NCBI GenBank assembly: GCA_964187785.1
Contig: OZ076409.1
Span: 76,634,001-76,698,000 of the forward strand
DNA: 64,000 bases
Direction: 5' to 3'
Source: Amphiscolops sp. MND2022
Lineage: Eukaryota
The position numbers were made by a program, and so were the translations under genes. Shown here in pieces: positions 9,401 to 36,778 of this stretch (its first letter is position 1; every line of letters starts with the position of its first letter). The notes below the pieces were generated by a model. The model ran no database searches. It was not told where the DNA came from and worked only from the letters and a program-made list of their open reading frames with translations.

Positions 9401-10391
9401 TTAACTCCGGCTTTATCGCTCGACTTGGGTGTGGTTGTTCCGGAGCCTTGGTGGAGCTCCCAGCTGGCATACCCTTTCCTGCACCAAGTGGTCGCGGGAG
9501 GGACCTCTCACGCCTCATGGTGTTGATAGCGTTGAGCACAGTATGCATTTGGTTGCTCAAGTCGTTGATCTGGGTCTCTACGCGCAGCTCACGGGCCATT
9601 AGCAAGTCATTCATTTCGCCCATTCGATGGCCTAGTGTGTCTACTCGGGCACTCTGCACATTCTGCGCGGTACCCAATTGGTCACTAACTTGTAGACCTT
9701 CCCGCATCGTCATTTGCATCGTTCTCATGTTTTCGACAATGGCATGATGCTGCTCATTGCACTCAGCACGAGTGCTGGCTAATCCTGCTAAGGCACGCTG
9801 GGTCTCGGCTTGGGCATCCAATAGTGCTGCCTTATACACCGAGGACCGCTGGGGCGATGCCACTGAGCCAGCCGCACTCCTCGTACGCGGTGCATCGAAG
9901 TAGCGTTCCCCCGCGTTCATCATGGGCGGTCGCACCCTCTTGTGCTTTCCGTAGGCACAAACTCGAGTGAACCCTCGAGCAAGTCCCGATCCTTGTGGTC
10001 TCTAATAATTCGCGTTTTCCACATAGGTGAGGTCTTGGTCCACAGCGACTTGCAAGCGCGAATTCGTTTCTTCGCTCAGGGGTGCTCGGGAGCACCCTTC
10101 CTCGGCTACGGGTTCGTTAGTTACGTTTGAGTTGGGCCACTCCTCTTCTGCCTCGTTGGCTCTTTCGCGGCATGTCTCGTCGACCCATTGCTCAGTGCGT
10201 CGGGAGCTTCCAGAAGTGACTAAACCGTCAGAGGGGGGAGCCATGGCGGCCAGTTCCTCCTTGCGTTGTTGTTCTATAGTAACTTCGTCAGACATTTCGT
10301 CTGAAAAATGCGAACCGTCCATCGAGGATTCATGCGTTGCCCAAGACTGCGAGCTCAGGTCGGATTTCGCTGGACTTCGCATGGTTATCAT
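6429..10391 (-). pseudogene. gag: gag-protease of element 1 (one frameshift near 9950-10000)
   Basis: 1168-aa ORF with coiled coil, capsid-like region (YRGSKDGSIDGWI...LEGEAR), CCHC knuckle, a second degenerate knuckle (CTNCGVFDHAGVQC) and an in-frame DTG protease. The upstream 129-aa ORF is the likely N-terminus. Confidence 0.85.
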
Positions 10392-14431: not shown

Positions 14432-14889
14432 TAGACGTTACTCTCAGTGACCATTTAGACGTCATTTCTGTTCCCCGAGTATCAATCTTTTGACTGACAG
14501 CCATCTTTTGGCAAGCAATTAATTGTGAAAACGCGTCCTTGGTTGTGTGCAAAAGCATTCTACCTTTAGTTTTCATTGTTGTGGGACCGATAAAAACTTG
14601 GTAATGAGATCTAATGAGGTTAATGTAATTGCATGGTCCAAATTGACAGGCATTTCATCCACGATCGAAAAGGTACCCGAAGAATGTTTTACATTTTCAC
14701 TGGAAATTGAAAAGTTGTATGACCGAAGGATCCCATTTGGTTTTTAGTCGGCGCTTTCGCTGTAGCTCTGGTCGGCGCAGACTCTAGCACTGGCTTTTTT
14801 AAAAAACCACGAAGTGACAGATTTTGTAAGCTGTAACGTATACCCGATATAGCGTTCCTTGGAGAATTTTCAAAGCAGCAAAAAGCGCT

Positions 14890-15941
14890 AAGTAGTCCCC
14901 GTCGACAATATCTATCCCTCATTCTCTGTCAAATCTATCGGAAAATCTTGCAAACAGGAATCTTCCCCCACGAGTGGAAAAAGGCAGTCATTGTTCCTGT
15001 GTTCAAAACAAGGGAACAAGTCCCTAATTGTTAACTATCGACCCGTATCACTGCTAAATACTCCTGGGAAAATTTTAGAAACCTTGGTTTCCAAAGAGTT
15101 GTTTACTTTTTGTTCTCTTTTTCTACATGATTCACAGTTTGGCTTCCGGAAAAACCGATCGACAGTTACTCAAATGATAACTTTTCTTCAAAAAATGTAT
15201 GAAGGGATCGCGGCAAATAGCTACTTCACAGACTTCAGCTAAGCCTTCAACAAAGTAGACCAAGGATTACTTTTACAAAAAATCTACAATATGGGTATTC
15301 GAGGAAAGCTTTTTTAAGTGATCAAATCTTTTGTAGTTGCACGTGTAGGGGACTCTCTCTCCGGAAAGAGTTTCTCGCGACCAGTGGAGTGCCACAAGGC
15401 AGCATTCTCAGCCCCCTTCTTTTACTAATCTTTATAAATGAATTGCCCGACCTTTGTAATGAAGTATGCCCCATACTTTTTGCAGTTGATGCCAATTTCT
15501 TCTGCGTTGGATTAGACACAAAAGCAATCCAAGACGACCTAAGCAGTATATTCAATTGGACTTTATCAAACAAGATGCCTTTCAACATGAAAAAATGTGC
15601 ACACATTGCAATACCAAACAAGAAAATGTTTATGGGAATGCTCTCATTGAACCTGCGTTAATTTAAACATCTTCAGGTAGATTTACTGAAAACTTTTATT
15701 AGAGAAACCCTTTTCGAAAATGACAATTTTGATAGTGTTGGAATTGATGAACAGGAAGATTGTGATGCCACGATTGAGCATATCGATCGGTTATTCGGTT
15801 GAAAGATGAACGTCCCCATTCTTGTTAATGGTAGTCCCTGTTATGGCCTCAGCAAGTATACCATCTCTCAATTTGAACACTCCCAGAAAAGAATAGTTCA
15901 GTGGGTTATCCCTAGAAAAGAATCGTACAAGGAAAAATTGT
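14890..15941 (+). pseudogene. CR1/L2-like non-LTR RT fragment, interrupted by the provirus (continues at 30205-~30400)
   Basis: WKKAVIVPV, NYRPVSLL, DFS-AFNKVD, GVPQGSILSP and LFAVD motifs with frameshifts. Confidence 0.85.
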
Positions 15942-16273
15942 TGTAACATAGCTGAAACATTCCGTTGTTGAGGACAAAAGAACTGATTGAAAGAACTCCT
16001 AAATATTTGACCTTAAAACTATTTTACCTATGACAGAACTTTAACCTTTTAACTATTTGATCAGCATCTTTAAACAAATAACTATAAAAACACTTATTAA
16101 TACAAAAACATCAGTGCTGACAATAACTAGAGAATTGCATGGTTGTGTTTTCAAATAAAAAGATTGAGAACTAATCTGAGGATTGTGATCCATGTTCCGA
16201 AGACTTGGCTGCTCTCCATTCCTGCATCCAGCCGCCAGCCATAAAAACTCATCTTAAAAGTAGAGATATAAGT
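15942..16273 (+). repeat. 5' LTR of element 2
   Basis: Direct repeat of 29868-30199. I count about 5 substitutions in 332 bp. Termini are TGT...AGT. Confidence 0.97.
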
Positions 16274-16287
16274 TGGTGACAGGAGCG
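16274..16287 (+). promoter_or_regulatory. Primer binding site
   Basis: TGGTGACAGGAGCG directly after the 5' LTR; TGG complements the tRNA CCA end. It resembles tRNA-Leu-type PBSs (inferred). Confidence 0.75.
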
Positions 16288-16978
16288 AAACAATCCTCAC
16301 TATGCAATACAGAGAAGAACTCTCCCTTTTGTGTTGAAAAGCTCACACGAGACCCCCGACCAACCACCCGCGGTGTTCCAGCCACATCATCCACGACCAG
16401 CACCAGATCCACGAGGCTGTAATAACTGAAACAAACAAGGCACGGCAGAAACTGGAAACTACAGCAATCAACGATGACTTTTGGTGACTTTCTCCAATTG
16501 GGCGAACTTTGATGCTACGATATCTGTATTCAATTTCATGATGACTTCAAAGTGCCAGTACGAATACAGTCGGTGAGTTTGATTCAATTCTGAAGCAGTA
16601 AAGTGATATAGTGTGGATTTCCAATTTCATGAGTGCTTCAACTGTTATCATTTTCAACTGAACTGTGCCTCACAGCTGTTACTCTTTTTGAAACTCAACT
16701 GTGAATTTCTGCAAACTTTTTACTTTTTTCCACTTGCAAACTTCCTCCTTTCACTGCAAATTGTAATTGTTGCAAAAACGCTATAAATTTGATCTCAAAT
16801 CTTTCTTGTTTCGCCTTGAAAGTATCATATTCGTTGTTCAGTTTTCGAAGTACAAACTACACATCAGTGTTCGACTGCATTTTACATACTTTGATCGACA
16901 ATTTTTCAATTTTTTCTTCACTACAATCTTAGTTTGTTTTATTCGTCACTCTTTAGTTTACACTTAACTTTTCAAATC

Positions 16979-18247
16979 ATGGCTGCTTTACCTCAACTCT
17001 CGCTAACACCCTACTCGGGTTTAGAAAAGGAAAATTTTCGTGAATTCGAACATTTGTTACGAAGTATCTTAGCAGTAGCTGCGGTACCGCAAGCGCAGCA
17101 AGAGAACTTTTTACAACTTCATCTTAGAGACGCTGCGCTCCGCTATTTTCAAACACTACCGGTAGCAACACGTGCGGACTTAGACCTCTCTTTGACAGCT
17201 CTTCGTGATCACTTTTGTAATCCAAGACTTCAGGAATTGCATGTTCTTAAATTGGAAAACTTAAAATTCGATCCGAAAACAGACAATCCAGAGAATTTTT
17301 TAGTCATGTTACAAACGAAAGCACTTAAAGCTTATCCCGACCCAAATCCACCCGCAGTAGCACCAACTGACGGTGCCGCGCCGGACGCAGCAGTCGAACA
17401 AACACGATTTGATTCTGAAACCACCAGAAGAGCCGAAATAATTCATTCTGCGCAACAAGCGCGCTCCGCTCAGATCCGGAGACAATTTATAAAAAATATG
17501 CCGGGCTGGCTTCGAGCGAAACTTTTGGAACAACCGGAAAATACAACGGTTGAAGATTTGTGTATATTCGCTCGGAAACAACTTTCGATCTATAACCTTT
17601 GTAAGGTTGAAGATTCGGTTATGGATGCTTTCAGTGAAGTGCGCCCTTCAGTATCTGATACTTTAGTTACAGCTCTTACAAAATTGAGCCATAGTCAAGA
17701 AACTATGGACAATCGACTGAACGAAATGTCCAAAAAACTAGAAGAGCAAGCTACGAATTTTACCACTCAGTTTTAAAATCAGCAAAACCAAAACAATTCG
17801 CAACGCGGCTCTCAAAACTATCGTAGCCAAGGCTATCGCGGAAATTGAGGAAATTTTCGTGGTCGGTATCGCGGCAATAACCGTGGAAACCGAGGTCGAG
17901 GTTACCAAGGTCGAGGACGACCTTGGCAGAACAATTACGGCAGAAATTACAATCAGTCAAATCAAAATTACCAAAATTCAAATTTTAATCAGAATCAAAA
18001 TATTCAGCAACAATGGTCAAATCATAATCAGGAAAACTTTCAACAGGGAAATTCCAATCAAGGTTCATCGCAAACTACATTTGAAGTTTTTACTCCGGAT
18101 CCTTATTACATGCCTTATACACAACAATCAACACATACTTGCTATAATTGCGGATATCCGAATCATCTAGCAAAAGATTGTACTGCGCAAGGTAACCCGC
18201 CACAACGAGGAGCTCAAATGCCGTTCAATCAAAATCAAAAAAACTAA
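16979..18247 (+). pseudogene. gag: gag of element 2 (two in-frame stops)
   Basis: ATG 16979 (MAALPQLSLTPYSG...). After reading through TAA at 17774 and a TGA at ~17846 the frame continues into an RG/N/Q-rich region and CYNCGYPNHLAKDC, ending at TAA 18245-18247. Confidence 0.88.
18238..18244 (+). promoter_or_regulatory. -1 ribosomal frameshift slippery heptamer A_AAA_AAC
   Basis: It sits in the gag frame immediately before the gag TAA. The -1 frame is open from 18244 into the protease ORF (18352). Confidence 0.8.
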
Positions 18248-21200
18248 AAACGCAGCACAAGATTCCACCTCCTAATTCTCTACTTGAAATCCAGTCTAAT
18301 GAGCCACACACATGTAACATAGAATTAAAAGAGCCAGTTATATGCGCTGTTTTGCCTCTTGAAGGTGAAAATCTTTCCTACGTTAAATTGAAATTTTCTC
18401 CGAACATTCGCCGGAGAGCCCTCATTGATACAGGCGCCTGCGCTAATGCATTGCCTCAAAATTTATACGACGAATTACGTTTGAGTCATCCCGACTTAAT
18501 TAAAAATGAAACTCCAACATTTACGTCTGTCCGCATGGCTTCAGGACAACGAGTGTCAGTTGACAATCAGGTGAATCTCACATTCTGTATTGGAATTCAT
18601 TCCTTTACGGACAGTTTTCTCGTGCTACCAAAAATGAATAGTGTAATTTTGGGAAACTCTTTCTTTAAAAACAGAATATCACAATAGACCCCAAAAACAA
18701 CTTACTGAAACTGCCCGACTTTACGGTTCAACTCAATGAAATGAAACCGGACGCTGGAAAAAAACGACAATTTGTGAAAAAAATGAAAAATATACCTATC
18801 CTATTGAGCAAAAAAGTCAATATTGGACCGCAGCAACAAGTCCTCCTTGAATGCTATTTGGATGAATATACTGACCAGTTCGCCAATTGCACAGGATTAG
18901 TAATTCCAAACAAGAATCTGGAGGACAAAGCCAATGTTGCATTAACTTTGTCTCTGAGCAAGATGGATAATGACAATAAAATATACATATCAGCGATCAA
19001 TTTGTCCGAGTCCCAGATTACGCTAAATAGCAAAAAACAAATTGCACATTTCGAAATTTTGAGCGAGTCACAGGCTGATTACCTCCTTGAAATAGATCCA
19101 CAATTATTGGCACTCGCAAAAATGAGAAGACCTGACGATTTTGAAAATGAACTTAGTCAGCTCATTCAAGATATCCACTTTCAGAAATTTGACACTGACA
19201 ATGGTCGGCCGCCACCAGATTACTCAAAACTTTGGTTTCCGACTCCCGAAACATGTACAGATCTTTCAAATTTATCACCGTTGCAACGTGAAATTTACGA
19301 CCAAATTTTGCAACTCCAACGTTGTGAAAAAATAAACCCAAAATCGAATTCACACGATAGACAAGAATTTTTGAAAAAATTGACGTGGGATACATGTGTT
19401 TTGAGCGCTGATGAAAAGTCAAAATTGGAGGACTTTCTTGTTGAATATCATGACGTGTTCGCTTTGATGTTGGGTATAATACAGAATTGAAGATCAAATT
19501 AACGCCTGCTCATCAACTTCCGGTATACGTTCAAGGTCCACCAGCACCGATTCATTTGCGTGACGAAATCTTATTTGAATTGGCGTTATTACAATATTTT
19601 AACATCATAACTACATTGTCACACTCCAAATATTCTAGTCCGATATTTGTCCATCGCAAACCATCTGGCAAGTTTCGCATACTTATCGATCTTAGAAGAG
19701 TCAACCACCTCCTACGCCATGATTACTTAAATAGCAATTTCCCGATTTCAAATATGACAGATGCGACAAACCATTTTGCGGGAAAGAAGTTATTTTGTAA
19801 ACTTGATTGTTCGCAAGCATACCATTGCGTTCAAATGGCAGATGACCTTTCGGTACAATTGCTGGCATTCAATTTCGCTTCACGTACATTTGCCTATAAT
19901 TGTTTAGCCCAAGGCCTGAACAAATCCGTCACTGGATTTAGTTCGTTCGTCAAACATTATCTAGATAAATGTCTTTCTGCCAATGTTTGTACTCAATTCA
20001 TGGACGACATTGCCATGGGAGTAAACAACTTTGATGAAATGATTCCTGCTTTGACGAAAATATTTGATTGCCTGCGAGCATCGGGATTAAAATTGTCTGC
20101 TCACAAATGCGAATTTGAGAAACAACAACAATTGATTATTTGGGAAGCACTATAACTCCTAAAGGAATCTCACCTGAAGCAGACAAAATAAACAAATTCC
20201 TTGAAAAAATCAGGATGCCAGAAACAGTTAAACAAGTGAAGAGATTGATTGGATTTTTCCAATTTTTCCGTTCATTTATGCCCAACTTGGGTCAAAAACT
20301 GCTACCATTTTACAAACTTTTGCGAAAAGATGTAGAATTTAAAACCACGAAAGAACATAGCGAAGCACTAGATGTATTAAAAACTGATTTACGAAATGCT
20401 ACCAACTCTACTTTGCGATTGGCAAAACCTGGTCTCCGATACGTACTCCTTTGTGACGCTAGTTATCATGGCACAGGCTTTGTCCTCATGATTGAGGACT
20501 ACTTGTTAGATCAACAAGGAAAAGAGAAAAAAGTATACGCGCCGGTCTCCTTTGGATCTCGATAGTTTGGCCCGACGCAATTGAAATTTTCGGTTTACTA
20601 TAAAGAATTTCTTGCTCTCTATTTCGCCTTAGATCATTTTGCACATTTTATATGGGGCGCAACTAAACCTGTGCTAGTCTTAACCGATAACCGTAGTCTC
20701 ACGCAATTTTTCCAATCTAAAAGTATTCATCCGTCGTTATGGAACTGTTTGGATAGAGTTTTGTCTTTCAACATTCTCCTTGCTCATATTCCTGGTAAAG
20801 CGAATTCGGCCGCAGATTTTTTATCACGAATGCAAACAGACCCTACTCTAACTCTGTCTCTCAAATTAACTGATCGGATACCTATTAAAGAGATCGAAAT
20901 AGAAACCGAAGCGAAATCTCCTGATGTCGCTTTATCAAATATTTTGGATAGATCACCTTTTCCGGAATCTGTTGACGATTAGGCTGACGAACGCCTAATT
21001 TCACAATTGAAAGAATTTGGTCTCTACGAACAGTTTTTACAGAAAATAACCGAAGCGCAGACTATCCCGTCTCTTGACATCACTGGCTTTTACTCCTTTT
21101 GTCAATTAAATCAAATAAACTTAGTATCGTCAGGAGAATTCAGCGACATTCTTGATGATTTGCCCAATCGGTCGGAACCAATAGACCTCGCCTCAGTACA

Positions 21201-23732
21201 AAATCAAGACGAGATCATTCGTGAAGTAATGCAATGGAAAGACCGAGGTTCGCCGGATATGTCGCCAAATTTACCAATAGTTTTGCGAAAATATCGTAAA
21301 CAGTTTCCACGCCTAATCATTCAGGACAAAAAGATCGACTTTTTTATGACGATCAAGGAAAAGTCCAACACAAACAGTTCTGTGTCCCTAAATCCCTATG
21401 GCGCGAAGTAATTTACCGCTTGCATAACTCGCCGACAGCAGGCCAAATGGGAATCAATAAAACGGTTGAAGAATTTAGAAAACGCTTTTATTTCCCGAAT
21501 TTTACAGAATACTTAACGTCAACTATCCAAAACTGTCTACAATGCTTGCAACTGAAACGTGTACCAAGCAAAAATCTGAAAACTCCGTTGCAACCGGTCT
21601 CCTCGTTGAAATCTTACCCGGGCGAAATGTTACAAATTGACCTTGTCGGTCCGTTACAGTCTCCGCTCTACCGTTATGTTCTTACGGGTATTGATGTTTT
21701 TAGAAAATATCTTTTTGCAGTCCCACTTACTAATGGGAGGTCAGAAACCGTTGCACGAGAACTTGCGTCGATATTTTTCCGTCATAGTTATCTTCCAAAA
21801 TCAATTCTATCCGACTTGGGTACTACTTTTGTGAGTGAATTGATGCACGAATTGACAAAACTTTTGGAAATAAAATTAGAACATGCCAGTCTAAAGCACC
21901 CACAAACTGTCGGTGTTGTGGAGCGCTCGCATAGCCCCCTTAAACGAATTTTGAAAATAAACACCACTGAGCAGTGGAACGACTGGTACAAGTATGTACA
22001 ACTTGCAGCCTTCATTCATAATACTTCTTATCATTTTGCAATCGGAACGAGCCCGACCACCTTGTTTCATGGTCGAGAGCCTCTGAAACCTTTAGATCTC
22101 AGGTTTAATAACAGTTCGCTTGCACGTGCGCAACCGACTACAGAATATGTGCTTGCATTGCAGGATGCCATGCTACAGAAATTTTCTGCAGCAAAAAGTA
22201 AATTGACTGAAATGTATAATAGATACCGCGCATATTATGATTACAAAGCTGAAGGGCACCCTCTTAAACAATTCTCGTTTTATCTTCTTTTGAATCCAAA
22301 ACTAATGACGCAGTCTGATTTTTCGAGTAAGTTCCTTCCTATCTGGCTACCCTTGTATCGAGTCGAGCAAGTTTTAACGAATTCAAATTACATCATTCGC
22401 AAGGTAGGTACAAACTACACTCAATGCGTACATCGCATTCGTCTCCGACCGGTTGTACCGCAATATCAAGTTGACGACTTACCGCAAATTGACCCGGATA
22501 AATTTCAACGCGATCCTATGCTTGGGCGATTCCGTGGAGAGCCAGCTATTTTCGATGAAAGCATTCCAACTCTTCTGTTACCTCCCTCAGAGGAAACTAG
22601 TGTCGCTCACAACGAAGAAAAGCCTCCACCGCTTACGGTTTCGCTTAGTTTTCCTATTGCACCAGCTGTTATCCCGATGGGACCAGCTCCAGGGCCAGCA
22701 GTTCCACCCCTACCAGCTGCAGCAGAAGCTCCAGCAATTCCCGCACTGCCAGCCCAGGACGAAGAACAACAACCAGCGTTTGTGCCATATCTTGACGATG
22801 AATCCACAGATTCTCCGTCCTCTCCACGAACGACTTCAGATGACGACCAGGCACGCTACGCAGGTGCATCTACACCCACCTCGGCCGAGCAAGCATCACG
22901 TACCGTCCGTCCGAAACTTCCGACTACCTCATCTCGCACTAATCGCACTTTGAATTTCGATGAGAATCGTGAAACAGTACCAGTCTTCATTGGACGTGGA
23001 CCTAAATCATATGGACAACCGTCATCTAGACTAGCGCTGACTCAGGTTCCAGGTACAAGCTTCCTGAAGGCAGATAAGCGCACACTCTTGCTCGATCTCT
23101 TGTCAACGAACTCGACCTCCTTCTGATGAAAGTCCACGAGTCCACCCAACTACCACGCAACAGCTGACACCGCAATCTCCTCAGGAGTATCTACAGCACC
23201 AAAAGGAAGTAAAAGCACGCTATAATTTCCGTAATTTGAAGAAAAGACTGTCCTCATCCAATGTTTTAAACTCTATTTCCTCTGACAGTCATCCGAACTT
23301 TTGCTTTTCTTCTTCGAATATTCTAGACTCTACGGAGTCTATAGCTCACTGTGTTTCCGCTGACTTCCAAATGAAACGCGGTCTGGCATCTGCCATCGCT
23401 TACCGCCACCCTGCGCTCCGCCAGCTCAGTGCTAATACTCCAAAATGTTTACCGCCGGGATCACTGGTCTCTTATTTTGACAAAAATAATCAACGTTATA
23501 TCTATTATTTAGTGACAAAAAACGATTTTTTCATACATCTACATACGAAACGCTTCAATTGAGCTTGATGGCCCTTCGTCAGCATTCAAAGCGCCACCGA
23601 ATTCGAGCACTTAGTATCCCGAGACTCGGAAGTGGTCTTGACCGTTTACATTGGCCAACTGTTTTCTCAATCTTATATCGTATTTTTTCACAGTCGCCGG
23701 TTACTATTACAATCATTCAGCCCCCACGTTAA
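18244..23732 (+). pseudogene. pol: pol of element 2: protease, RT, RNase H, integrase, Pro-rich linker, macrodomain; multiple lesions
   Basis: ALIDTGA (PR); LIDLRRVN, KLDCSQAY, QFMDD (RT); LLCDAS (RH); HN...CLQC, QIDLVGP, SDLG, VVERSH (IN); macrodomain at the end. Split across ORFs by frameshifts and stops. Confidence 0.92.
23293..23732 (+). pseudogene. TARG1/OARD1(DarG)-like macrodomain at the Pol C-terminus
   Basis: SNILDSTESIAHCVSADFQMKRGLA...PGSL...RYIYYLVTK, then after a frameshift TLQLSLMALRQH...ALSIPRLGSGLDRLHWPTVFSILYRIFSQSPVTITII. This matches TARG1 motifs AHCIS-D-MG-GIA, YYLITK and MPRIGCGLDRLQW. Confidence 0.88.
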
Positions 23733-24366
23733 TGATCGCTCTTTCTTGGGGTCATGCAATCGCTTCTTACTCACGAGACGTCGCTCTTTACTCGTCTTTC
23801 CGTTGAACGTATTAACAAAAACGCAACAAACATGAAAATCGACCTTTTCAACCGAAGTTTTTTCAGTGTTAAATTTTCGCAGCAGACTTGGATTTTCGGC
23901 GTCCCGCCCTTTTTTGCCTCGCTTTTTCTATTGGCACACCCACTGGTCGCATTGCAAATCAAAAAAAAAATTTTCTGGTCGTACGGCGCACTTCGAGATT
24001 CCATGTCCCCCTACAATAATTTCCACAATTCGACGTTTTTTAGAAAAAAAACTCTATAAAACTTGTTTCACAACCGCCCGCCAGCGGTAAGCTTGCCTTA
24101 TACTCGCTTAAAACCACTTTTATCGACAATGATTTAGATTTCCTGAGTTGGACATTTCTTTATGAATTTTGAAATGAGATCATTTGATGAAATGATTACT
24201 CCCAGTATTTTCGGGCCTTTTTAGAGGGCGACTTTTCGGCCTCCCCACTCCGATCAAAGGTTACGTCGTTGCTGTAAATACTTTTTCAATCACTTTCGAT
24301 GTTTTTTAAATTATATTTATCACTTACGTCCCTACTAACCTTTCTATTGGCCACTCAACTAGTGGT

Positions 24367-24813
24367 TCACAATGAAATTTTCTTTCTCTCTCTGAGTGAA
24401 TGACATGGAAGAGAAAGGCGGCCCTTGGTGCTGGACTCCTCGCTTTTGCAGGATAGCGAATCCATCCCTTTCTTTTTGCGTATCTCCAGAAGACTAGCAT
24501 GTCCCAGCCTAATACCTGGGCCGTGCCTAACATCTGAAAGCAGTGCATTTTTCTGAAATTCCTGTCTAAACTTTTTCGTTGAATAATTTGGTCTTACCCA
24601 AGGCTCACTGATGTCGGCATTTGACCGCAGCACGGCATCGAGTTCGAATTCATTTGGAGCGTACTCCAGGCATTCTACACTTGACTTCTGAAATTCAGGG
24701 GTTTTCATCTGGTTCCCGATTGTATCCCGGATCCGCTTCAATGCAGCGCTGTCCTTTTTTTTATCTGAAACACCATCACTCTCTTGCTTTCCCTTTCCAG
24801 TTGCAGTCGTCAT
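24367..24813 (-). CDS. Antisense accessory ORF (148 aa, basic), unknown function
   Basis: ATG-initiated ORF inside the provirus between pol and env; no recognisable motif. Confidence 0.35.
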   Translation of the reverse strand: MTTATGKGKQESDGVSDKKKDSAALKRIRDTIGNQMKTPEFQKSSVECLEYAPNEFELDAVLRSNADISEPWVRPNYSTKKFRQEFQKNALLSDVRHGPGIRLGHASLLEIRKKKGMDSLSCKSEESSTKGRLSLPCHSLRERKKISL

Positions 24814-25149
24814 GATGGTTTTCCATCATACACTTACCACTTTTTCCCCGTCACCAAGTAATATACACTTGACGCCCAACATTTTTCACCACCTTGGGCA
24901 AGAATCGATTTACAAGTTGCCATTGGCGGCTCACCTAGCCCAATTACTGCTCCATTTTCTGGCTCGTCCGTCAGTTTTTGACAGACTAGACCTAATTTTT
25001 CACAGGCCTTTCGTCGCTCCCTTCGAGCCACACTTGTTGCTCTCTGCCAACGATAGCCTTCTTGTCGCGTCCAGAAGCATTCTGGACAATCGTGCAGGAG
25101 TCTATGAAAATGGTTACTTCGTTATTGTCTTTTCTAATTTTGTTTTCTC

Positions 25150-25581
25150 TAATCCGTTTACTTACGTTTTTACAGCCCGTTCGAGACCTCCAATGAATGT
25201 TGGCAAAACGTACCCTTTGTCGGATAATACTTTTCGCAATTATTCTTCGTCTTGTATGTGCCTTTTCTCAGTTTCATGAAAAGGCCATAAGATAGTGGTT
25301 AACTCTTCGACTGTTGGCACCCTTTGACCGTTCCAGCATAAAGCCCCCATTTCGTTGAGAGTGAACCACTTGAGCCGTTTCCCCCATAAATCCTTTTGCC
25401 CCTTTGTTTGGCAGACTAATTTGTTCACTTCGTTGTTTCTTTTCATTTCAGAGATCGCATTGTATAATGTACGTTCCATTCTATCTAGCAAATATTCATA
25501 ATGAATCTTTTCGCTGCATTCTCGAGATTTAAAACAAACACATGTTGCGTTAGTTACACTTGACTCAAGTTCGTTTGTCAT
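25150..25581 (-). CDS. Antisense accessory ORF with a degenerate integrase Zn-binding (H2C2)-like segment, interrupted by stops
   Basis: GALCWNGQRVPTVEELTTILWPFHETEKRH...*LRKVLSDKGYVLP...LERAVKT resembles the VP...IL..H....H...L...Y..P....V pattern. Confidence 0.4.
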
Positions 25582-25754
25582 GACATTTAACTCCTGTTTA
25601 CCGACAAAACAACATAGTCAATATCATTCATCGACAAGTTCTTCTTGTACAGCGTTTTGTCTAGTTTGTCTCTTTCTTTCGATTCTTTACTTTTGAATTT
25701 AAGCTAAGCTTAGGCACATCATTTTACCTACTTTCCACTCGATCTTTTCATGTA

Positions 25755-26039
25755 ATGTTACAAAACATGGCTTTTGCCTTTCACTACAATTGGGAGTGTA
25801 CCCACGATGGCACGGCTTTCCCAATTATACGCATTCAAACTGATAAAACGATGGGCATTTCGCTGATCCTATCAGATGGCACCTTACGACAGCTTGTCTA
25901 CGGTTCTCCTCAATGGATCGAGCTGGTTCTTCTGTTTCAAAGACAGGATTTTCCTGTCCCGAAATTCGGCGGCTTACGGACTTTCATCAAATTCCGACAA
26001 CTGCGGATGGCTTTGTTTAATGCCTATCAAACTTTATGA
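25755..26039 (+). CDS. Small sense accessory ORF (94 aa), unknown function
   Basis: ATG-initiated, globular-looking composition, inside the provirus. Confidence 0.35.
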   Translation: MLQNMAFAFHYNWECTHDGTAFPIIRIQTDKTMGISLILSDGTLRQLVYGSPQWIELVLLFQRQDFPVPKFGGLRTFIKFRQLRMALFNAYQTL

Positions 26040-26196
26040 CCAATTCATTCTGTTCGTTGTTCATTTAAACTCTTGAATCTTCTACCCTTGATAATATGCA
26101 CTTTTTTTCTTGTAAACTAGCAGATTTGGCTCCGGTCTTTTTATAAGCCAAGTTTTTTATCAAAACAAGTAGCATTAAAACCTTTCAAGTTTCAAA

Positions 26197-26250
26197 GTAT
26201 GCTGTAAACGTATGCTGTAAACGTATGCTGTAAACGTAAAAGTATGCTGT
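26197..26250. repeat. 13-bp tandem repeat (GTATGCTGTAAAC)x3 plus a partial copy
   Basis: Visible directly, between two convergent accessory ORFs. Confidence 0.85.
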
Positions 26251-26330
26251 CAAATTCAGATTGTTCAGTTATCACACTAACTAAATTATTCTAACACATA
26301 ACGTAAAACAAAAACCTAGTTTTTTGTCAC

Positions 26331-26741
26331 TTAAAACGACTGGCTGCGTGGAAGTTTCGCAACTGCTTCAGTTTTGATGACTTTTACTTCCAGTTTTGGG
26401 TTTTCGACCACGTCAGCTTTGGTTGGACAACATTTTGTTATCATTGCAGTAATTCTTTGGATAGGAAATTTCCGCCAGCAACAGCACGCAACTATTCCTA
26501 ATACAAGTAGGGCGATTAGCCATTTCATCACTTTTTTCGATTTAGAGTCAGGTTTTTCTTCGATGCTCGATGCGCCACATACACTTGTCTTTTGTGTCAC
26601 CCAGACATTCTGACCAGGCGAGACTTCCATAGCAGTCCCTTTGGGACAACACAGTACTTTGTGGCCTCGCCACTCCCTTTGCACACATATTTCAACAATG
26701 GCATAAAAGCAGAATGCCGAAACCAAGTACAGGACTTTCAT
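26331..26741 (-). CDS. Antisense small type-I membrane protein (136 aa)
   Basis: N-terminal hydrophobic signal (MKVLYLVSAFCFYAIV), short Cys-containing ectodomain, TM helix WLIALLVLGIVA, juxtamembrane CCC+WRK and basic tail. Confidence 0.65.
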   Translation of the reverse strand: MKVLYLVSAFCFYAIVEICVQREWRGHKVLCCPKGTAMEVSPGQNVWVTQKTSVCGASSIEEKPDSKSKKVMKWLIALLVLGIVACCCWRKFPIQRITAMITKCCPTKADVVENPKLEVKVIKTEAVAKLPRSQSF

Positions 26742-27121
26742 TTAGCTGAAATATTCGAAAATCTCTTTTCGACTTGGATGACATTTTGCTGTCCTATGTC
26801 CACTTAAATACAGGATGTCACATTACTTACCTACGTGCAACTAAACAACGCCAATATCACTAATACCGTAAACATGACTTGCCAAAACAAACTTTCACAA
26901 CTCGAATTTTGTCAATATCAAAAGGGCACCGGATATTGAAAACAAATGGAATCACATTTCTTGTGATCTTTCAAAAATCCACAAACCCCTCCCAAAAATA
27001 CCTAAAGTGCCATTCTTGCATTTGAGATCGATCGAACTAGTTGCTACAGTATTCATTCGAAAATTATTCGATTTTATCCAATATCAAAAAAAGGGGGAAA
27101 CACACGAAGAAAAACGGATCC

Positions 27122-29530
27122 ATGTTAGTTTTGTTCCTCCTGGTTTTCTTCACCCCTGCTTCAGTTCGAAGTGAGTGGATTTCTAATTTAGAAGCCTCCA
27201 ATAACCCGAACGAAATCCAAGAAAAGGGCGTTCTGTTCCATGAACGCAGTAAAATCTTGCTCGCGGAGAAATTTATAAAAATTGAATTTTTAGTCCCCTT
27301 TCCGACTTATGACTTCGCACTTAAACCAGATATTGTGGCCTTAATGGCCAAATTTGCGTCGATGTGGGAACTTCCATCTGTTTTTTGTCCCTTGGACTTT
27401 TCAAGTCACTTTTCAACAAATTCAACGCCGTTCAATGTCACCTGGATGTTACAACAAATAGAAACTGAAATCCACACTGCGGAACTCGATGTTGCCCTCC
27501 TACGTAATGAAACAGCAATGTTTCTCTCCCCTCCTCAACAGCAGCGGAATACTCGCCACCGACGTGGATCCCAAGTGGGACTAGCAGCTCTTGCTGCAGT
27601 CGGTCTTTTTGGAGGAGGAGTGGCTCTTGGAAGTTCTGACTCTTGTGGACTACAAGGCATTTTTGGTTCCTGTCAGGACGATGCGAAGGCAAATGCCGAA
27701 AATATTCGCAAACTATCAGACTTCCAGGACGTTTTAACCCAGTATGTAACCGATTTTACAACATCTACGGACAAAAAATTTTTTATGGTTGAAAATGAAC
27801 TGGCGGCCCTTCACGACATCCAAAGGGAACTTGTTGATACGCAGAACAAAAACTGGGCACTTATTCAACAACAGTTTGATGTTTTTGAGCATAATTTTCA
27901 TGTACTCCGCGACTGCAACCAAATGCTTTTTTCGAATCAACAACTAAACTTCAATTTCGATACCTTATCTTCGCTACTAGCAATGATACATGCAAAAGTT
28001 AAGAGCTATCGCGCGGCCTTATTTGCATTCCGCATGAACATCTTAAATTCGATTCCGATTTTACTTAGAGGTCATTTATCTATGTCTTTGGTACCAACGG
28101 AATCGTTTTTGGCTATTCTACGAAGTGTTGCAATGAAGCAGGCGACGGCTGAGGATAGGCTGTCTTTAGCTATCCCAATGTCAGATCTGCTCTCTTACTT
28201 CGATTCCAAGCTCTTAGCAGATGCTATTACGGTTAATGAAGGTCTTTTGATGACCCTGAACATCGCGCTAGCATCTAAGCAAACCGTTTTTACTGTCTAT
28301 GAAGCAAAATTAATTCCGATGCCGTATCCAGACGATCCCCAGTCGGCTCTTACATGGAACATCAAAGCTCCATATTTAGCTTTGTCGGAGGATCACATGG
28401 AGTCATCTGTCCTCTCTGCTGAACAGTTTGAGCATTGTCTCGGCGCATCTCGTTACCGAATCTGTTCAGAGTCTGTTCCAACAGAGATGGGACACTCGTC
28501 TTGTTTAGCCACTTTGTATTCCAGTACAGCATCGGAGGCTCTTGCAGTATGTGATACTACCATTGTACAACTGCCTGCCATAGAACAAGCAACAAACTTA
28601 GGCTATGGCATTTGGTTAATTCAATCCGCTCACGCAGTTACCCTTCGTGAAGTTTCATCTTCATCTGTTCAGGGCTCTTCTTTTCGCGGATGCCGCATAT
28701 GTCTCATCACTTTAGCATGTGGAATGCAAATCATGACTGACAACATCAAAATCCGATCTGATCTAACAAGTTGTGCTCACATTCCACCAATAAAATTGCA
28801 AGTTTCTCTGCCTAATCCTATCGCTTCATTGGTTATGGAAGTCCCCCCTTTGGACGAATTACCGTTCTACACATCGAAAGCTGAAGCAGGAGTGAAGTTA
28901 TTGAAGGAGGTAAAGCTACTGTTAGCAAAAGGACCAAAGAATAGTGAAGTCAAACACATGATCGACATTGCCAGACCATATGCATCAGAAATGAAACTCT
29001 TGAAACCAGCCTTAACGAAAAAATTTAATCAATATGTTCCGTTCCGAATTTCATTCATGCTGACATTAACTGTGTTCATTGTATCGACAGCTTTGCACTT
29101 GATCTTTATGTACATTTATCATCGCTACAATCTGGCATCGAAATTGTTTCCATCCCTACTTGATAAAAACAAAAAAAGAGTGCGAGCTAAACCCATGATG
29201 AAATTGGAAACAACTGATTCTCATGCTGAGGATAAATTTCACAAACAATTTGGACGAATATATCATCTTTCACGTTCACAATCGAAAAGAAATCTAAACG
29301 AACCATCTACATCTGCTAATTGCGATCAAGTGCTCATGCAAAGTCCACTAGACCCCAGAATGGCCAGTTCAATGTTTGAATACGAGACGACTGCATTCAA
29401 ACAATGCCATCCCATTAAAAATCTTCAATCATCAATCAAAAAACACCCAAGTAACTGTCAAGTTACAATTAACCAAAAGGTTCCCGATACCGGAGACTTT
29501 GAAGCAGACCAAGCCGACACCATTGCTTGA
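27122..29530 (+). CDS. env: Envelope / class I fusion glycoprotein (F-like), 802 aa, intact ORF
   Basis: ATG 27122 with signal peptide MLVLFLLVFFTPASVRS; NxT sequons; furin site RHRR followed by the hydrophobic Gly/Ala fusion peptide GSQVGLAALAAVGLFGGGVALG; heptad-like helices; Cys-rich domain; TM ISFMLTLTVFIVSTALHLIFMYIY. Located before the PPT and 3' LTR. Confidence 0.9.
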   Translation: MLVLFLLVFFTPASVRSEWISNLEASNNPNEIQEKGVLFHERSKILLAEKFIKIEFLVPFPTYDFALKPDIVALMAKFASMWELPSVFCPLDFSSHFSTNSTPFNVTWMLQQIETEIHTAELDVALLRNETAMFLSPPQQQRNTRHRRGSQVGLAALAAVGLFGGGVALGSSDSCGLQGIFGSCQDDAKANAENIRKLSDFQDVLTQYVTDFTTSTDKKFFMVENELAALHDIQRELVDTQNKNWALIQQQFDVFEHNFHVLRDCNQMLFSNQQLNFNFDTLSSLLAMIHAKVKSYRAALFAFRMNILNSIPILLRGHLSMSLVPTESFLAILRSVAMKQATAEDRLSLAIPMSDLLSYFDSKLLADAITVNEGLLMTLNIALASKQTVFTVYEAKLIPMPYPDDPQSALTWNIKAPYLALSEDHMESSVLSAEQFEHCLGASRYRICSESVPTEMGHSSCLATLYSSTASEALAVCDTTIVQLPAIEQATNLGYGIWLIQSAHAVTLREVSSSSVQGSSFRGCRICLITLACGMQIMTDNIKIRSDLTSCAHIPPIKLQVSLPNPIASLVMEVPPLDELPFYTSKAEAGVKLLKEVKLLLAKGPKNSEVKHMIDIARPYASEMKLLKPALTKKFNQYVPFRISFMLTLTVFIVSTALHLIFMYIYHRYNLASKLFPSLLDKNKKRVRAKPMMKLETTDSHAEDKFHKQFGRIYHLSRSQSKRNLNEPSTSANCDQVLMQSPLDPRMASSMFEYETTAFKQCHPIKNLQSSIKKHPSNCQVTINQKVPDTGDFEADQADTIA

Positions 29531-29855
29531 CTTCACGAACCTTCGGTTCAATCATTCATTCATCATTGAGATTGATCAAAACAAATCCTTTCATAAATTT
29601 TCTTCTGCAGTAATATGTAAACTATAAATGCAGTAATCTTTGGCTCTACAATATTCAACTGGACTGGATGAAATATACAACTTTATCACAACATGAAACT
29701 GGGACTTGTGCTGCTCTCCAAAACTCTTATCTTTGGGCTCTTTCAATGGAATTATTGGAAGTAGACTACTCAACTTGGCAATTTCAGCTTCTAATCATCA
29801 CTACACTACTCCTCAAACTGTATGATGGCTCTTTTTCAGACGCCGGAAGTTTTTC

Positions 29856-29867
29856 GATGAGAGGAAG
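29856..29867 (+). promoter_or_regulatory. Polypurine tract
   Basis: GATGAGAGGAAG immediately 5' of the 3' LTR. Confidence 0.8.
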
Positions 29868-30199
29868 TGTAACATAGCTGAAACATTCCGTTGTTGAGGA
29901 CAAAAGAACTGATTGAAAGAACTCTTAAATATTTGACCTTAAAACTATTTTACCTATGACAGAACTTTAATCTTTTAACTATTTGATCAGCATCTTTAAA
30001 CAAATAACTATGATAACACTTATTAATACAAAAACATCAGTGCTGACAATAACTAGAGAATTGCATGGTTGTGTTTTCAAATAAGAAGATTGAGAACTAA
30101 TCTGAGGATTGTGATCCATGTTCCGAAGACTTGGCTGCTCTCCATTCCTGCATCCAGCCGCCAGCCATAAAAACTCATCTTAAAAGTAGAGATATAAGT
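29868..30199 (+). repeat. 3' LTR of element 2
   Basis: Direct repeat of 15942-16273, followed by the ATTGT TSD. Confidence 0.97.
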
Positions 30200-30559
30200 A
30201 TTGTCGACCTTACCTCTACCAATGTATATCCAAATCAGCAACCTGCTACTATCAAAAATACTACGTGGACGCTATTACTCCCAAAAGCTTCGAATACATC
30301 TTATTTTCCGCTTGTTTCTGTTTCAGCTGGATAGACCAAAGAATAAAACTCTGGAAAACGACTTCTACCAAAGCGACTGACTCTCAATTTCTAAGACTGG
30401 ATATTACTGACCGAACAAACTTGAAGAAAAAAGTAACTTTTCTGGCAGAATTTAAACAACTTGAACAAATTTTACAGGTGTACATGAGCAGTGACATGCG
30501 ATTGGACGATGAAAAACTGCGGAAGCAAAACGAACATCTAGAACATGATAACTGTGGGG

Positions 30560-31330
30560 ACGTAGTCCCTTGTGTTTATAAACACTAAATGCGTTTTACT
30601 ACTCTGTGTTCCGTGACGATATCGCGTTTCGATATGGCTGGGAACCCAGAAACCTACCTTCGAAATCCGCCTGTGATGAAAACTTGGTCGTGACCCATGC
30701 AATGCGCTGTGCAAGGGGTGGCTTCACACATGTGAGACACAATGAAATACGTGACACGTTCGCGGAACTATTGGACGAAATCTGTTTCGATGTCGAAATG
30801 GAGCCGATCCTTCAGCCTCTACAAGGGAAACCCTTTCAAAGAAACCAACGAGCACTGAAGATGACGCCCGACTTGACATTAACGCAAACTGTGGGAATCA
30901 GCTTCAAATCATACTTCGACGTTAAAATTTTTAACCCTTTGCAAAAATTTGTCCGAAAAACATTGACGACGATTATAACGTCCACGAGAACGCTGGAAAT
31001 TGCGCTTCAACAGAACTTACTTCGACGTTAAAATTTTTAACCCCTTTGCAAAAAGTTGTCCGGAAAACATTGCCGACGCCTATAACTTCCACGATAACGC
31101 AAAGAAGTTGAAGTATGAATCGAGAATTACTGAAGTGGAGAACGCTAGCTTCCATCCGCGGATCCTTGCTAGCCCAGGTGGTGCAGGCCCAGTAATGATT
31201 TGAATAGCTTCGAAGATCAGCGAGAAAAAAGACGACTCTTATGCGAACGTGATAACTTTCAAAAGGACAAAACTGCCTCGCTCTCCTAAGATGCTCAATA
31301 TTGTGTATTCGAGGCTCACGTTTGATGCGT
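30560..31330 (+). pseudogene. CRE-like non-LTR fragment (Zn knuckle + restriction-like endonuclease region)
   Basis: FRDDIAFRYGW...HAMRCARGG...RHNEIRD...EPILQPLQG...ARLDI...YFDVKIFNP...KKLKYESRITEVENASF.P...GGAG. Internal ~80-bp duplication at ~30912-31100. Confidence 0.7.
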
Positions 31331-32111
31331 CAGACTAACAACTCTGGCATCATCAATTATTACAGTAGTTGACGATAACTTTAGGATAACTTATTAATAA
31401 TTATCACACTGATTCATTTTCTGGCATTGGACTGTGGAATTGAGGGTTGTTTTTTGTAAGAATGTGCTCATAAATCTTGATGAAACCAAGTATTAGACTC
31501 ATGTTGCCGTAAGGATGATGTTGATTTAGTATACTATGCTTTTCTGCGCTATCGAAAAATATTTCCATAAACTCAGAGCCAATGCCAGCTCATATGTCTA
31601 GATTGTACTTTTACATTCTTCTAATTAATCTTTGATCTCAATGTCAATGCGACTCCTTTATTTATATTAATTCTTTGTCTATTTACTATAGTGTGTCTTC
31701 TCCCCCCAACATGATGATACACATGGCACTTGCTTGATGACAAAGATCCATGATATCTGATTTTCGAATATTCTAACTTTTTCATATAAAATCAAACCTT
31801 CCTACCTTGTACCTTTCAAACATTAACCGGACGACTGTACATTCACGTATTTCTTTCATTAACTATTTTTGTTATTCATTCATAGTTTTCATTCATGAAT
31901 TCATAATATTGCCAATCGGGGACGTATTTCTCATGATTTTACTCGTTTTATTCCAGTCTTTAGTCCTTGTAGTAGTGTTTGTGTTGTTGCTTGAAATATA
32001 GTAGTTATGTCAGTGTTTTTTTTGTTTTTCAGTCATTTTTAGACGTTATTCTCGTCTCTTTCAGATTCAGATGGTATTCCTTTGGACTAAGCCTGATGGA
32101 CTATTCCTGAT

Positions 32112-32857
32112 GGACTAAGCTCTGATGAAATTGTCTGGTTGGGTGAGAAGCCCAACATCCAATGGAACTGTGACGTGTGCCTTCCCACTGCCAATGAAGA
32201 AGCCGTCTCTTCTCTTACTGAAGCTAAGTTGAATTCAATTTTGTCCGATTTTCAAGTCACTATTAAAAATTCAGTATCTGAAATTGTACCTGGCCTTATT
32301 AAAAATGCCTTACTTGACATGAATGAAAACGTCAAAGAGGCTGTTACCAGCTCTCTTCCCTCTTATCGAGATATTGTTTTGAATGCCAAGAAACCTCCCT
32401 CTGAACCTCAGTTTATCATTACTGGGATTCCTGAAAAAGAAGAAAAATACTTTAAACAAGTTGAAGAAGACACTAAAATGGTTGATGATATTATTCAGCA
32501 CATGGGTTTGCGCACTGAAGGCAATATAAATGCTATTCGCCGACTGGGAAAGATTTCTAAAACAAAGGAGCCGATAAGGGAGAGAATTCTAGTTCACGAT
32601 GTCGTCCAATACTTGTTACTGCAACGAATCCTCTCTTCATGAACCACTGTTTTGCTCGCAGTCACCATCTCCAAACATTCGACTATCGTGTCTACATCAA
32701 AAAACTTTTATCCTCTGCTGATCGCCAACGTGAAAAGAACATTCTATCCAAAAGATATCATATGATCCACGCAGAAAATAAAGACAAGAAAGATTTCCGT
32801 ATACGAAACCTAAAACTCTATTATCAAAACAAAGAAGTTGAAATTGAATCTACTTGA
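32112..32857 (+). pseudogene. LINE ORF1 (5'-truncated PHD finger end, coiled coil, RRM-like), one frameshift
   Basis: GLSSDEIVWLGEKPNIQWNCDVC; FIITGIPE; IRRLGK; VYIKK...RQREK. Confidence 0.75.
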
Positions 32858-32875
32858 CTAGACTCTCTGAGATGT

Positions 32876-35709: not shown

Positions 35710-35759
35710 CTCATTACATTTTGATGTCGTATCACCCTTTGAAAAGGAATTGAGTCTTT

Positions 35760-36778
<1,019 letters not shown>

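Follow-up and report, generated by a model that had tools for sequence, protein, structure and literature searches.

The window, a 64,000-nucleotide stretch of contig OZ076409.1 from Amphiscolops sp. MND2022, holds an LTR retrotransposon of 14,258 bp with exact boundaries (Table 1). Its LTR pair, target-site duplication, primer-binding site, and purine-rich tract, and a pol ordered PR-RT-RH-IN with HHCC and DDE signatures, are the structural features of Ty3/Gypsy elements (Metaviridae). The best PDB matches of the RT, weak and obtained against few references, were 4ol8 and Ty3 Gag-Pol 7q5b, which ranked above retroviral RTs. By RT and Env lineage the element does not belong to the Retroviridae; its likeness to complex retroviruses is one of organization only. 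A search with an 8-nt primer-binding-site pattern was uninformative.

Table 1. Features of the element and its flanks (positions in the window)
Feature	Position	Strand	Remarks
Whole element	15942..30199		14,258 bp
5′ target-site duplication	15937..15941	.	ATTGT; present once at the empty paralogous site 40706-40710
5′ LTR	15942..16273	+	332 bp; termini TG...GT instead of TG...CA
Primer-binding site	16274..16285	+	12 nt complementary to tRNA-Leu(CAG) 3′ end; CAG identity called at 1/4 retrieved loci matching the pattern
gag	16980..18247	+	One CCHC knuckle; one break in window copy
pol	18196..23732	+	PR (DTGA 18427), dUTPase-like, RT (FMDD 19997), RNase H, IN (HHCC, DDE), Pro-rich linker, macrodomain; fragmented in window copy
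Slippery heptamer A AAA AAC	18238..18244	+	gag/pol -1 junction; exact heptamer in 5/6 siblings
TARG1/OARD1-like macrodomain	23290..23732	+	Pol C-terminus; TK-motif Lys and GLDRL retained
Antisense gene, exon 5	24195..24271	-	Short basic tail; intron 4 only in subfamilies closer to window copy
Antisense gene, exon 4	24328..24533	-	OTU strands and catalytic-His motif FHCEP
Antisense gene, exon 3	24598..24764	-	OTU helical part; 167 nt in 22/34 copies
Antisense gene, exon 2	24838..25101	-	CxxC, linker, OTU catalytic-Cys motif; window copy out of frame near exon end
Antisense gene, exon 1	25166..25479	-	Integrase-like N-terminal extension and both His of HHCC; window-copy stop at 25240-25242
sORF2	25755..26039	+	94-aa predicted soluble protein; 11/40 loci; some lineages only
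ORF-A	26331..26741	-	136-aa predicted type I membrane protein; signal peptide, ~45-aa Cys-rich ectodomain, TM (hydropathy)
env	27122..29530	+	802 aa, one open frame; signal peptide, RHRR furin-like site (aa 145), hydrophobic fusion peptide (150-172), coiled coil, TM (639-667)
Purine-rich tract	29851..29867	+	Adjoins 3′ LTR
3′ LTR	29868..30199	+	332 bp; 5 mismatches between LTR pair
3′ target-site duplication	30200..30204	.	ATTGT

Previously, a first-pass annotation had described a 14.26-kb provirus flanked by a target-site duplication, with gag and a frameshifted pol ending in a TARG1-like macrodomain. The 332-bp LTRs, the ATTGT on both sides, and the empty paralogous site bear out the provirus, and Pfam and sibling copies bear out gag and the fusion of the macrodomain to Pol. 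Pfam detected the gag zinc knuckle, PR, RT, RH, and IN, and a dUTPase-like fold in pol scored E 9e-4, below the cut-off. The frameshift holds only for the gag/pol junction, where a -1 shift is kept in all six siblings as the sole frame break common to them; no stimulatory hairpin was found at the slippery site (fold z 0.16). Each of the nine other gag-pol breaks is open in four to six of the six siblings and is therefore decay of the window copy. Programmed shifts within pol were considered and rejected, the siblings being open (21300-21411 in 5/6). Decay of this copy also extends to antisense exons 1 and 2, and env remains open.

The broken macrodomain piece in the window matched at E 5e-4, and a sibling copy matched OARD1 at E 3e-24 with TK and GLDRL aligned; IN and macrodomain share a single open frame in 6/6 siblings. 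Among 40 loci, which were chosen for carrying exon 4 and are thus cassette carriers, the domain is present in 28, with TK in 24 and GxGxDxL in 21. It is missing from the other 12 and is therefore dispensable. A TARG1-like macrodomain fused to Pol is carried by most sublineages. Its TK-motif lysine probably corresponds to K84 of TARG1. K84 is described as the catalytic residue of TARG1, which strips ADP-ribose from DNA (PMC8501950).

The main content of the 3.3-kb spacer between pol and env is one antisense gene of four to five exons separated by short GT-AG introns. The codon positions of the introns are fixed across copies whose protein identity falls to 25-45%. Donor 1 is GT in 24/25 copies, acceptor 1 AG in 36/38, donor 2 GT in 37/38, and acceptor 3 AG in 36/36, against an AG background of 7.9%. 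The introns vary in sequence and in length (59-137 nt). In 478 of 479 binned pairs they are less conserved than the exons, and 67 of 68 called introns would break the frame if left unspliced. The dN/dS of 0.09, from few unsaturated and non-independent pairs, together with these splice sites, points to a spliced antisense frame that is under purifying selection.

The first-pass annotation had also claimed some 3.3 kb of extra open reading frames on both strands and an env, and had considered that the accessory region might be an insertion specific to this copy. The region recurs elsewhere in the genome at 98, 88, 74, and 68% DNA identity, so it is not copy-specific, and the position and orientation of the cassette are constant across the whole family. 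Conserved genes do lie on both strands, but the extra frames resolve into the spliced antisense gene, an antisense membrane-protein gene, and an optional sense gene. The splicing and the OTU protease, the most informative part of the locus, had been missed. ORF-based annotation overlooks spliced antisense genes of this kind, since Pfam is blank on their exons: among 39 single-exon, ORF-A, and sORF2 proteins, none passed the cut-off, with neither OTU (PF02338) nor rve in the exons. Genomic matches numbered 150 for exon 4 and 110 for exon 1. No longer homologue of exon 1 was present among 124 candidates. A search of representative sequences with a natural read-through frame returned 34 matches, and among the eight examined there was no spliced product; those eight were unspliced gene-caller fragments of the Gypsy family or, in one case, a chance match.

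The predicted antisense product begins with a zinc domain of the integrase-like HHCC type, and an OTU cysteine protease domain comes after it. The OTU profile match (hhalign) reached P 96.6 with a score of 63 against a shuffled maximum of 15, and P 95.7 when BEL/Pao rows were left out. The Cys motif, the His motif, and CxxC are each kept in 38/40 copies; the Cys, LGxD, and His motifs have the order and spacing of OTU proteases, and the protein is collinear over its full length with a Pfam-positive OTU protein. The residue at His+2 is Glu, where Asp or Asn is usual in OTU proteases. The match of the Gypsy N-terminal domain to integrases was moderate (P 54) and, with fewer rows, not above shuffles. 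A PWWP/Tudor reading of exon 4 alone was dropped after the OTU profile matches.

That Pfam-positive relative is an intronless homologue on the antisense strand of BEL/Pao elements in this genome; it passes the Pfam OTU cut-off, and the BEL/Pao ORF gave no rve match. Its model aligned with OTUD3 (Z 9.7, rmsd 3.9, 124 aligned), with the nairovirus L-protein OTU (Z 9.2 and 9.1), and with the N-terminus of foamy-virus integrase (Z 7.4, rmsd 3.6, 80 aligned, a Z possibly in the range of chance); Foldseek returned nothing for this model at E<=0.001. The modeled homologue is thus predicted to fold as an integrase N-terminus plus OTU. By extension from this fold model, the C-terminal domain of the Gypsy antisense protein very probably has the OTU fold, and it is probably an active deubiquitinase.

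The proposed class I fusogen was upheld as well: Env has the fold of an F-type fusogen (Hendra F, E 7e-7; baculovirus F, E 2e-16). Baculo_F was found in 6 of 65 relatives, and by sequence Env had no match in the PDB. No Env relative was confirmed in viral contigs, and one metagenome contig was too short to show the cassette. ORF-A, present in 31/40 loci with a dN/dS of 0.42 (3 pairs), gave nothing significant against the PDB; its splice contexts suggest a possible 5′-UTR intron (26830-26746). sORF2 has a dN/dS of 0.24 (5 pairs) and belongs to no known family by Pfam or PDB match. A sense ORF at 23754-24059 was rejected as a gene, with an ATG-led homologue in none of the 40 other loci and weak tblastn traces in seven.

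Taken together, the sequence comparisons argue very strongly for a recently active, F-type env-bearing Ty3/Gypsy lineage in which pol and env are separated by an exchangeable accessory cassette. In 8 of 15 Gypsy pairs whose IN and Env are at least 90% identical, the OTU proteins share at most 65% identity, with saturated dS. In BEL/Pao, a Pol end of 97% identity is likewise paired with an antisense ORF of 55%. The cassette appears to have been swapped between lineages; the trees covered the 12 of 40 loci for which all three parts were available. No Ginger1-type transposase with OTU, a candidate donor of the gene, was among the 17 OTU matches (25 candidates scored).

On the whole, we lean toward an explanation that joins this architecture to a counter-defence mechanism; the counter-defence role of the OTU and macrodomain set is, taken separately, a serious but slightly doubtful proposal. 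Transcription of the antisense mRNA would start at a promoter inside the element or in the 3′ LTR, and its introns would persist because, lying opposite to the genomic RNA, they are not removed before reverse transcription. The product would act as a deubiquitinase tethered by its zinc domain to element DNA or the integrase complex, stripping ubiquitin that would otherwise lead to breakdown of element proteins or to silencing of the provirus. The macrodomain would travel with integrase and take ADP-ribose off the integration complex or cDNA. ORF-A may serve as a surface co-factor of Env or as a receptor-interference protein. Host pressure would drive cassette exchange through recombination between co-packaged genomes. 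Viral macrodomains are reported to counter antiviral ADP-ribosylation (PMC7232374).

A housekeeping function is the less likely reading that both enzymes would aid integration and gap repair by undoing ubiquitin and ADP-ribose signalling where integration breaks the DNA, with no role in immunity. Both are tied to integrase parts, the macrodomain behind IN and the OTU behind an IN-N-terminal-like domain, and env-less BEL/Pao elements also carry the OTU gene. Furthermore, the OTU/Ulp1 domains of Ginger1 transposases have been suggested to act in repair (PMC2836005), and TARG1 takes ADP-ribose off DNA (PMC8501950). However, the wholesale swap of diverged cassettes on near-identical pol/env backbones, in Gypsy and BEL/Pao alike, fits host conflict better.

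It is improbable that the antisense protein serves to restrain the element itself, as a DDE-less integrase decoy which, with antisense RNA, damps copying or blocks superinfection, ORF-A acting in receptor interference. The retained integrase N-terminal module without a catalytic core would suit such a decoy, as would the regulatory antisense transcription described for plant elements (PMC7264820), yet a decoy needs no conserved OTU Cys/His pair. A neutral, unexpressed passenger, either a nested transposon or a host-gene fragment, is very improbable: Ginger1 transposases share domains and introns with the gene, which makes a nested insertion plausible as an origin, but the apparent selection on the spliced frame largely refutes neutrality, splice sites are conserved amid variable introns, position and orientation are constant, and the cassette has neither a DDE core nor an inverted repeat of at least 30 nt around it. 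Equally remote is a fold other than OTU, for although Pfam OTU was silent on single exons and one natural read-through frame and an Atlas search gave no usable match, the profile matches far exceed shuffles and motif order, spacing, and collinearity agree with OTU.

Most accessory genes of LTR retrotransposons cannot be assigned a function. The role of their antisense genes has been called unknown (PMC7264820); one of them now has a testable enzyme identity. Antisense genes with several introns can evidently persist in LTR elements, and the cassette offers a case of gene sharing among Gypsy, BEL/Pao, and possibly Ginger lineages. Present thinking on retroelement control in invertebrates is dominated by small RNAs, and the cassette provides a handle on control at the protein level through ubiquitin and ADP-ribose, whose removal some viruses turn on host defences. 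Returning to the counter-defence reading, we tentatively suggest a mobile gene that descends from a Ginger1-like transposase, of which it kept the integrase N-terminus and the OTU but not the catalytic core. It would be common to Gypsy elements, in spliced form, and BEL/Pao elements, without introns, would lie antisense behind integrase in every case, and would pass between lineages in the manner of an antigenic cassette. Together with the TARG1 macrodomain it would equip an invertebrate, retrovirus-like element to erase both ubiquitin and ADP-ribose, which would imply that integrase or proviral chromatin is subject to an unrecognized ubiquitin/PARP restriction in the host.

The first-pass annotation had suggested an undescribed lineage of infectious elements with an immune-evasion gene set; infectivity and immune evasion are both predictions, and the broad idea is less novel than that annotation implied. 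Among openly accessible full-text articles we found no report of an LTR element with an OTU gene or of a Gypsy Pol with a macrodomain; env-bearing and "complex" invertebrate Gypsy elements, in contrast, are known (PMC13524379, PMC6431247), and the former are widespread among animals (PMC13524379). The "ancient errantiviruses" of Chary and Hayashi (PMC13524379) share LTR-gag-pol-env, an F-type Env that has both a furin site and a fusion peptide, multiple and recent copies, and, in some cases, a Leu primer-binding site. Their accessible text mentions no macrodomain, antisense gene, or dUTPase and describes no pol-env cassette, and the supplements seen contain no OTU, antisense, or accessory entry; the "macro" matches shown there are species names. 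Planarian Burro/GYPSM1 giant Gypsy elements (PMC6431247) resemble ours in env homology, a dUTPase-like domain between PR and RT, and extras linked to ubiquitination and apoptosis, but these extras (BIR, BCL2, MATH, SUMO-like) sit in a sense polyprotein of ~4,900 aa and env lies between gag and pol; the accessible text names no OTU, macrodomain, or antisense gene. Oikopleura Tor (PMC4402516) is likewise an env-bearing, Gypsy-type invertebrate element whose env an internal promoter can drive, but accessory genes are not mentioned in the accessible part of that report.

Ginger1 DNA transposons, as far as described in PMC2836005, share a YPYY-type motif, H2C2 finger, and OTU in this order, and GT-AG introns. 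They differ in having a DDE core, GPY/F, and terminal inverted repeats, whereas here a coreless gene is cargo of an LTR element; the antisense gene is therefore not a Ginger1 member, and Ginger1 is only a possible source. Fish epsilon-like ERVs (PMC4977317, citing Basta 2009) also captured a macrodomain, but they are Retroviridae that carry it as additional ORFs, with OTU not named in the accessible text. Plant aORFs (Grande gene23, RIRE2, Retand; PMC7264820) are conserved antisense genes between pol and the 3′ LTR with their own promoter, but their products lack clear homologues and the accessible text mentions no introns; here a multi-exon enzyme gene stands beside a true env. HTLV, too, has a conserved antisense gene between pol and the 3′ LTR. 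The immune role of the nairovirus OTU and of RNA-virus macrodomains has been tested experimentally. These enzymes belong to RNA viruses, and the macrodomain of our element is TARG1-type; the likeness is in the OTU fold (of the BEL/Pao homologue) and in the predicted erasing of ubiquitin or ADP-ribose.

The 3.3-kb accessory cassette between pol and env of the Gypsy provirus holds on its minus strand what is, as predicted from the sequence, one spliced gene of five exons. At fixed offsets from protein motifs, GT was found at donor 1 in 24 of 25 testable loci and at donor 2 in 37 of 38, and AG at acceptors 1 and 3 in 36/38 and 36/36, respectively. This test allowed no picking among candidates and had a background for AG only (7.9%); its offsets were set on the window family together with three loci that had been inspected, and the copies tested are kin. 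Acceptor 2 and donor 3 were picked by score, not at fixed offsets. The introns measure 59 to 137 nt, and retention breaks the frame for 67 of 68 of them. Of 561 pairs, 479 were binned, and in 478 of these the exons are better conserved than the introns. Exon 3 is 167 nt long in 22 of 34 loci and 173 nt long in nine. From the 16 of 465 pairs that are unsaturated, the dN/dS of the spliced protease part is 0.09, similar to the values for integrase (IN, 0.06) and Env (0.05). In the window's own gene, a stop interrupts exon 1, and the reading frame breaks close to where exon 2 ends.

Exons 2-4 contain the motifs G-G-x-C-[WF], L-G-x-D and F-H-C-E-P. An hhalign comparison with 11 OTU domains, drawn from the 17 PF02338 matches of this genome, yielded P 96.6 and a score of 63, against at most 15 for 20 column shuffles, and P 95.7 with the six non-BEL rows only; the Pfam OTU model had no match on single exons. 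Two His and a CxxC, encoded by exon 1 together with the beginning of exon 2, are invariant in 23/23 rows. This zinc part did not exceed shuffles against integrase N-termini with 32 rows and gave a moderate match with 56 (P 54; 30 vs 17). At three further loci (L104, L110, L111), the OTU domain is part of a long open frame (2,244-2,747 aa) that probably belongs to another mobile element.

The accessory region belongs to the family, in line with the first-pass annotation and against the copy-specific insertion that would have refuted it: the spacer recurs in the genome at 98, 88, 74 and 68% identity. Exon 4 has at least 150 genomic matches (150/150 scored) and exon 1 at least 110 (110/150 scored). 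Among 40 loci fetched from these matches and picked for spread, with exon 4 present by construction, the antisense gene lies between IN and env in 38; one flank is visible in the remaining two. The extra ORFs claimed on both strands recur as the antisense gene, ORF-A and sORF2, but the sense ORF at 23754 lacks conservation across the 40 loci and was rejected as a gene. ORF-A stands head to head with env. Both ORF-A and sORF2 have dN/dS <1, on very few pairs, and a Pfam scan and PDB comparison found relatives of neither. In one copy (L004/L006, G000:C2:68.22-68.23 Mb), the antisense gene and sORF2 are tandemly duplicated. A distant Gypsy sublineage (L081-L092; identity to the window 49-57% in IN and 30-49% in Env) keeps the same spliced gene and has no macrodomain match; its LTR pairs are 100% identical in two elements inspected.

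Fifteen pairs share at least 90% identity in both IN and Env; in eight of them the OTU part has 65% identity or less and its dS is saturated. One such pair has a dS of 0.02 for IN and 0.07 for Env. Furthermore, in 12-row trees one copy joins three others by IN (support 81/85) and Env (94/94) and lies across a 100/99 split from those three by OTU. Synonymous sites that are saturated between near-identical flanks speak for recombination and against rapid protein evolution as the sole cause.

The provirus is TSD-flanked, as first annotated: its LTRs (332 bp each, five differing positions) are bordered on either side by ATTGT, which is single in a local duplicate of the flanking DNA, and its boundaries are therefore fixed. 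LTRs elsewhere end in ACA in the distant sublineage and ACT in another. At the primer-binding site, 12 nt 3' of the 5' LTR pair with the 3' end of genomic tRNA-Leu(CAG). This 3' end occurs in a tandem array (G000:C8:35.59-35.64 Mb, spacing often 296 bp), and its pattern has 840 matches across the 1.07-Gb assembly. Pfam recovered the order of a Gypsy element: zinc knuckle, protease, a dUTPase-like stretch (below threshold), RT, RNase H and integrase. The closest solved structures to the RT are Ty3-type. The annotated frameshift in pol held at the gag/pol junction only, where a -1 shift is common to 6/6 siblings (related copies), with an A AAA AAC slippery site just upstream of the gag stop, exact in 5/6; a fold test gave no stimulatory hairpin 3' of it (z 0.16). 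At each of nine further gag-pol breaks, 4 to 6 of the six siblings are open; thus, judged from its reading frames, the window copy is decayed, with env still open.

The proposed TARG1-like macrodomain fused to Pol was borne out. The Pol C-terminus matches human TARG1/OARD1 at E 5e-4 in the broken window copy and E 3e-24 in a sibling, with TK and GLDRL motifs aligned, and shares one frame with IN in 6/6 siblings. It is present in 28/40 diverged loci, absent from the 12 most distant, and has a dN/dS of 0.26 (72 of 253 pairs). The class I fusogen assignment likewise agrees with an Env layout of signal peptide, RHRR at 145, hydrophobic stretch at 150-172, long helix and TM at 639-667. The Env model (pLDDT 72) matches F of henipaviruses and RSV with E-values down to 7e-7, and F proteins of baculovirus and chuvirus-like type at E 2e-20 to 2e-16; the TM-scores are low (0.2-0.4 of the query). 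Relatives of Env number 133.

Features of the window
Feature	Position	Strand	Remarks
LTR pair	15942-16273, 29868-30199		LTRs of this subfamily end in AGT, not CA (16270-16273, 30196-30199)
Duplication, copy with provirus	14795-15941, 30200-31432		97-99% identical to second copy
Duplication, second copy	39528-41915		empty site
Antisense gene, donors	25165, 24837, 24597, 24327	minus	splice contexts
Antisense gene, acceptors	25102, 24765, 24534, 24272	minus	splice contexts
ORF-A	26331-26741	minus	small type I membrane protein, Cys-rich ectodomain; 31/40 loci
sORF2	25755-26039	plus	11/40 loci
Second Gypsy-type element	2027-10001	minus	GC-richer; motifs of gag, PR, RT and IN recognised by eye; ORF list shows no env
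LINE-like element	32097-36790		899-aa endonuclease+RT frame by eye, then about 1.05 kb of (ACT)n
Possible exons of a TRPM-type channel gene	43771-49823	minus	by motif resemblance

Five of the 17 OTU matches represent a single ORF type, antisense and tail to tail behind the integrase of elements that we take to be BEL/Pao-type from DUF5641 and sequence motifs. These elements (L106-L109, L112, L172-L175; e.g. G000:C1:86423095-86424045) are about 7 kb long with LTRs of 305-311 bp. The ORF (300-349 aa, intronless, integrase-N-terminal-like plus OTU) extends from behind integrase to the 3' LTR and has 136 genomic matches; four of four further, more distant matches share this setting. It likewise appears swapped between elements. 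The Gypsy gene aligns to it collinearly in all three of its parts (P 88.5, 33.7 and 88.7, each above shuffles). In its predicted model (pLDDT 76, alignment of 12 rows), the C-terminus resembles OTUD3, OTUD1 and nairovirus OTUs (Z 9.7-9.1), and residues 3-105 resemble foamy-virus, Ty3 and MLV integrase N-termini (Z 7.4, 6.5 and 4.2, where even 7.4 is possibly in the chance range); Foldseek ranked OTUs first, none at E<=0.001. Its domain order is that of a Ginger1 transposase without the DDE core, and Ginger1 transposases carry introns (PMC2836005, excerpt). By analogy, we hypothesize that the antisense gene may derive from a Ginger1-like transposase minus its DDE core; none of the 17 PF02338 matches of the host genome is a Ginger1-type transposase with OTU.

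LTR elements copy sense genomic RNA, and antisense introns are invisible to its splicing; therefore, the introns of this gene would be heritable. A separate antisense mRNA would yield the integrase-N-terminus/OTU protein, which may act at element DNA or integrase by removing ubiquitin, and the Pol-borne macrodomain would strip ADP-ribose. We prefer counter-defence as the purpose, since exchange of the cassette resembles that of a conflict gene. The main rival is that both assist integration repair; self-regulation of the element by the antisense protein is a lesser one.

On sequence evidence, the predicted spliced antisense OTU gene in an env(F) Gypsy element is real. OTU domains are known in Helitrons. 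In the literature searched (Repbase and subscription papers outside its scope), we found no report that an LTR element of any kind carries an OTU gene, that one carries an antisense enzyme gene with several introns, or that Gypsy Pol contains a macrodomain. Several parts have precedents in the excerpts cited: OTU in Ginger1 (PMC2836005), macrodomains in fish ERVs (PMC4977317), and complex organization in Burro elements (PMC6431247). The Env is of the same F-type as that reported in elements across many animal phyla (PMC13524379, excerpt). Finally, antisense ORFs are known in plant elements (PMC7264820, excerpt), and Cer1 has a spliced accessory protein in sense orientation (PMC10309623, excerpt).
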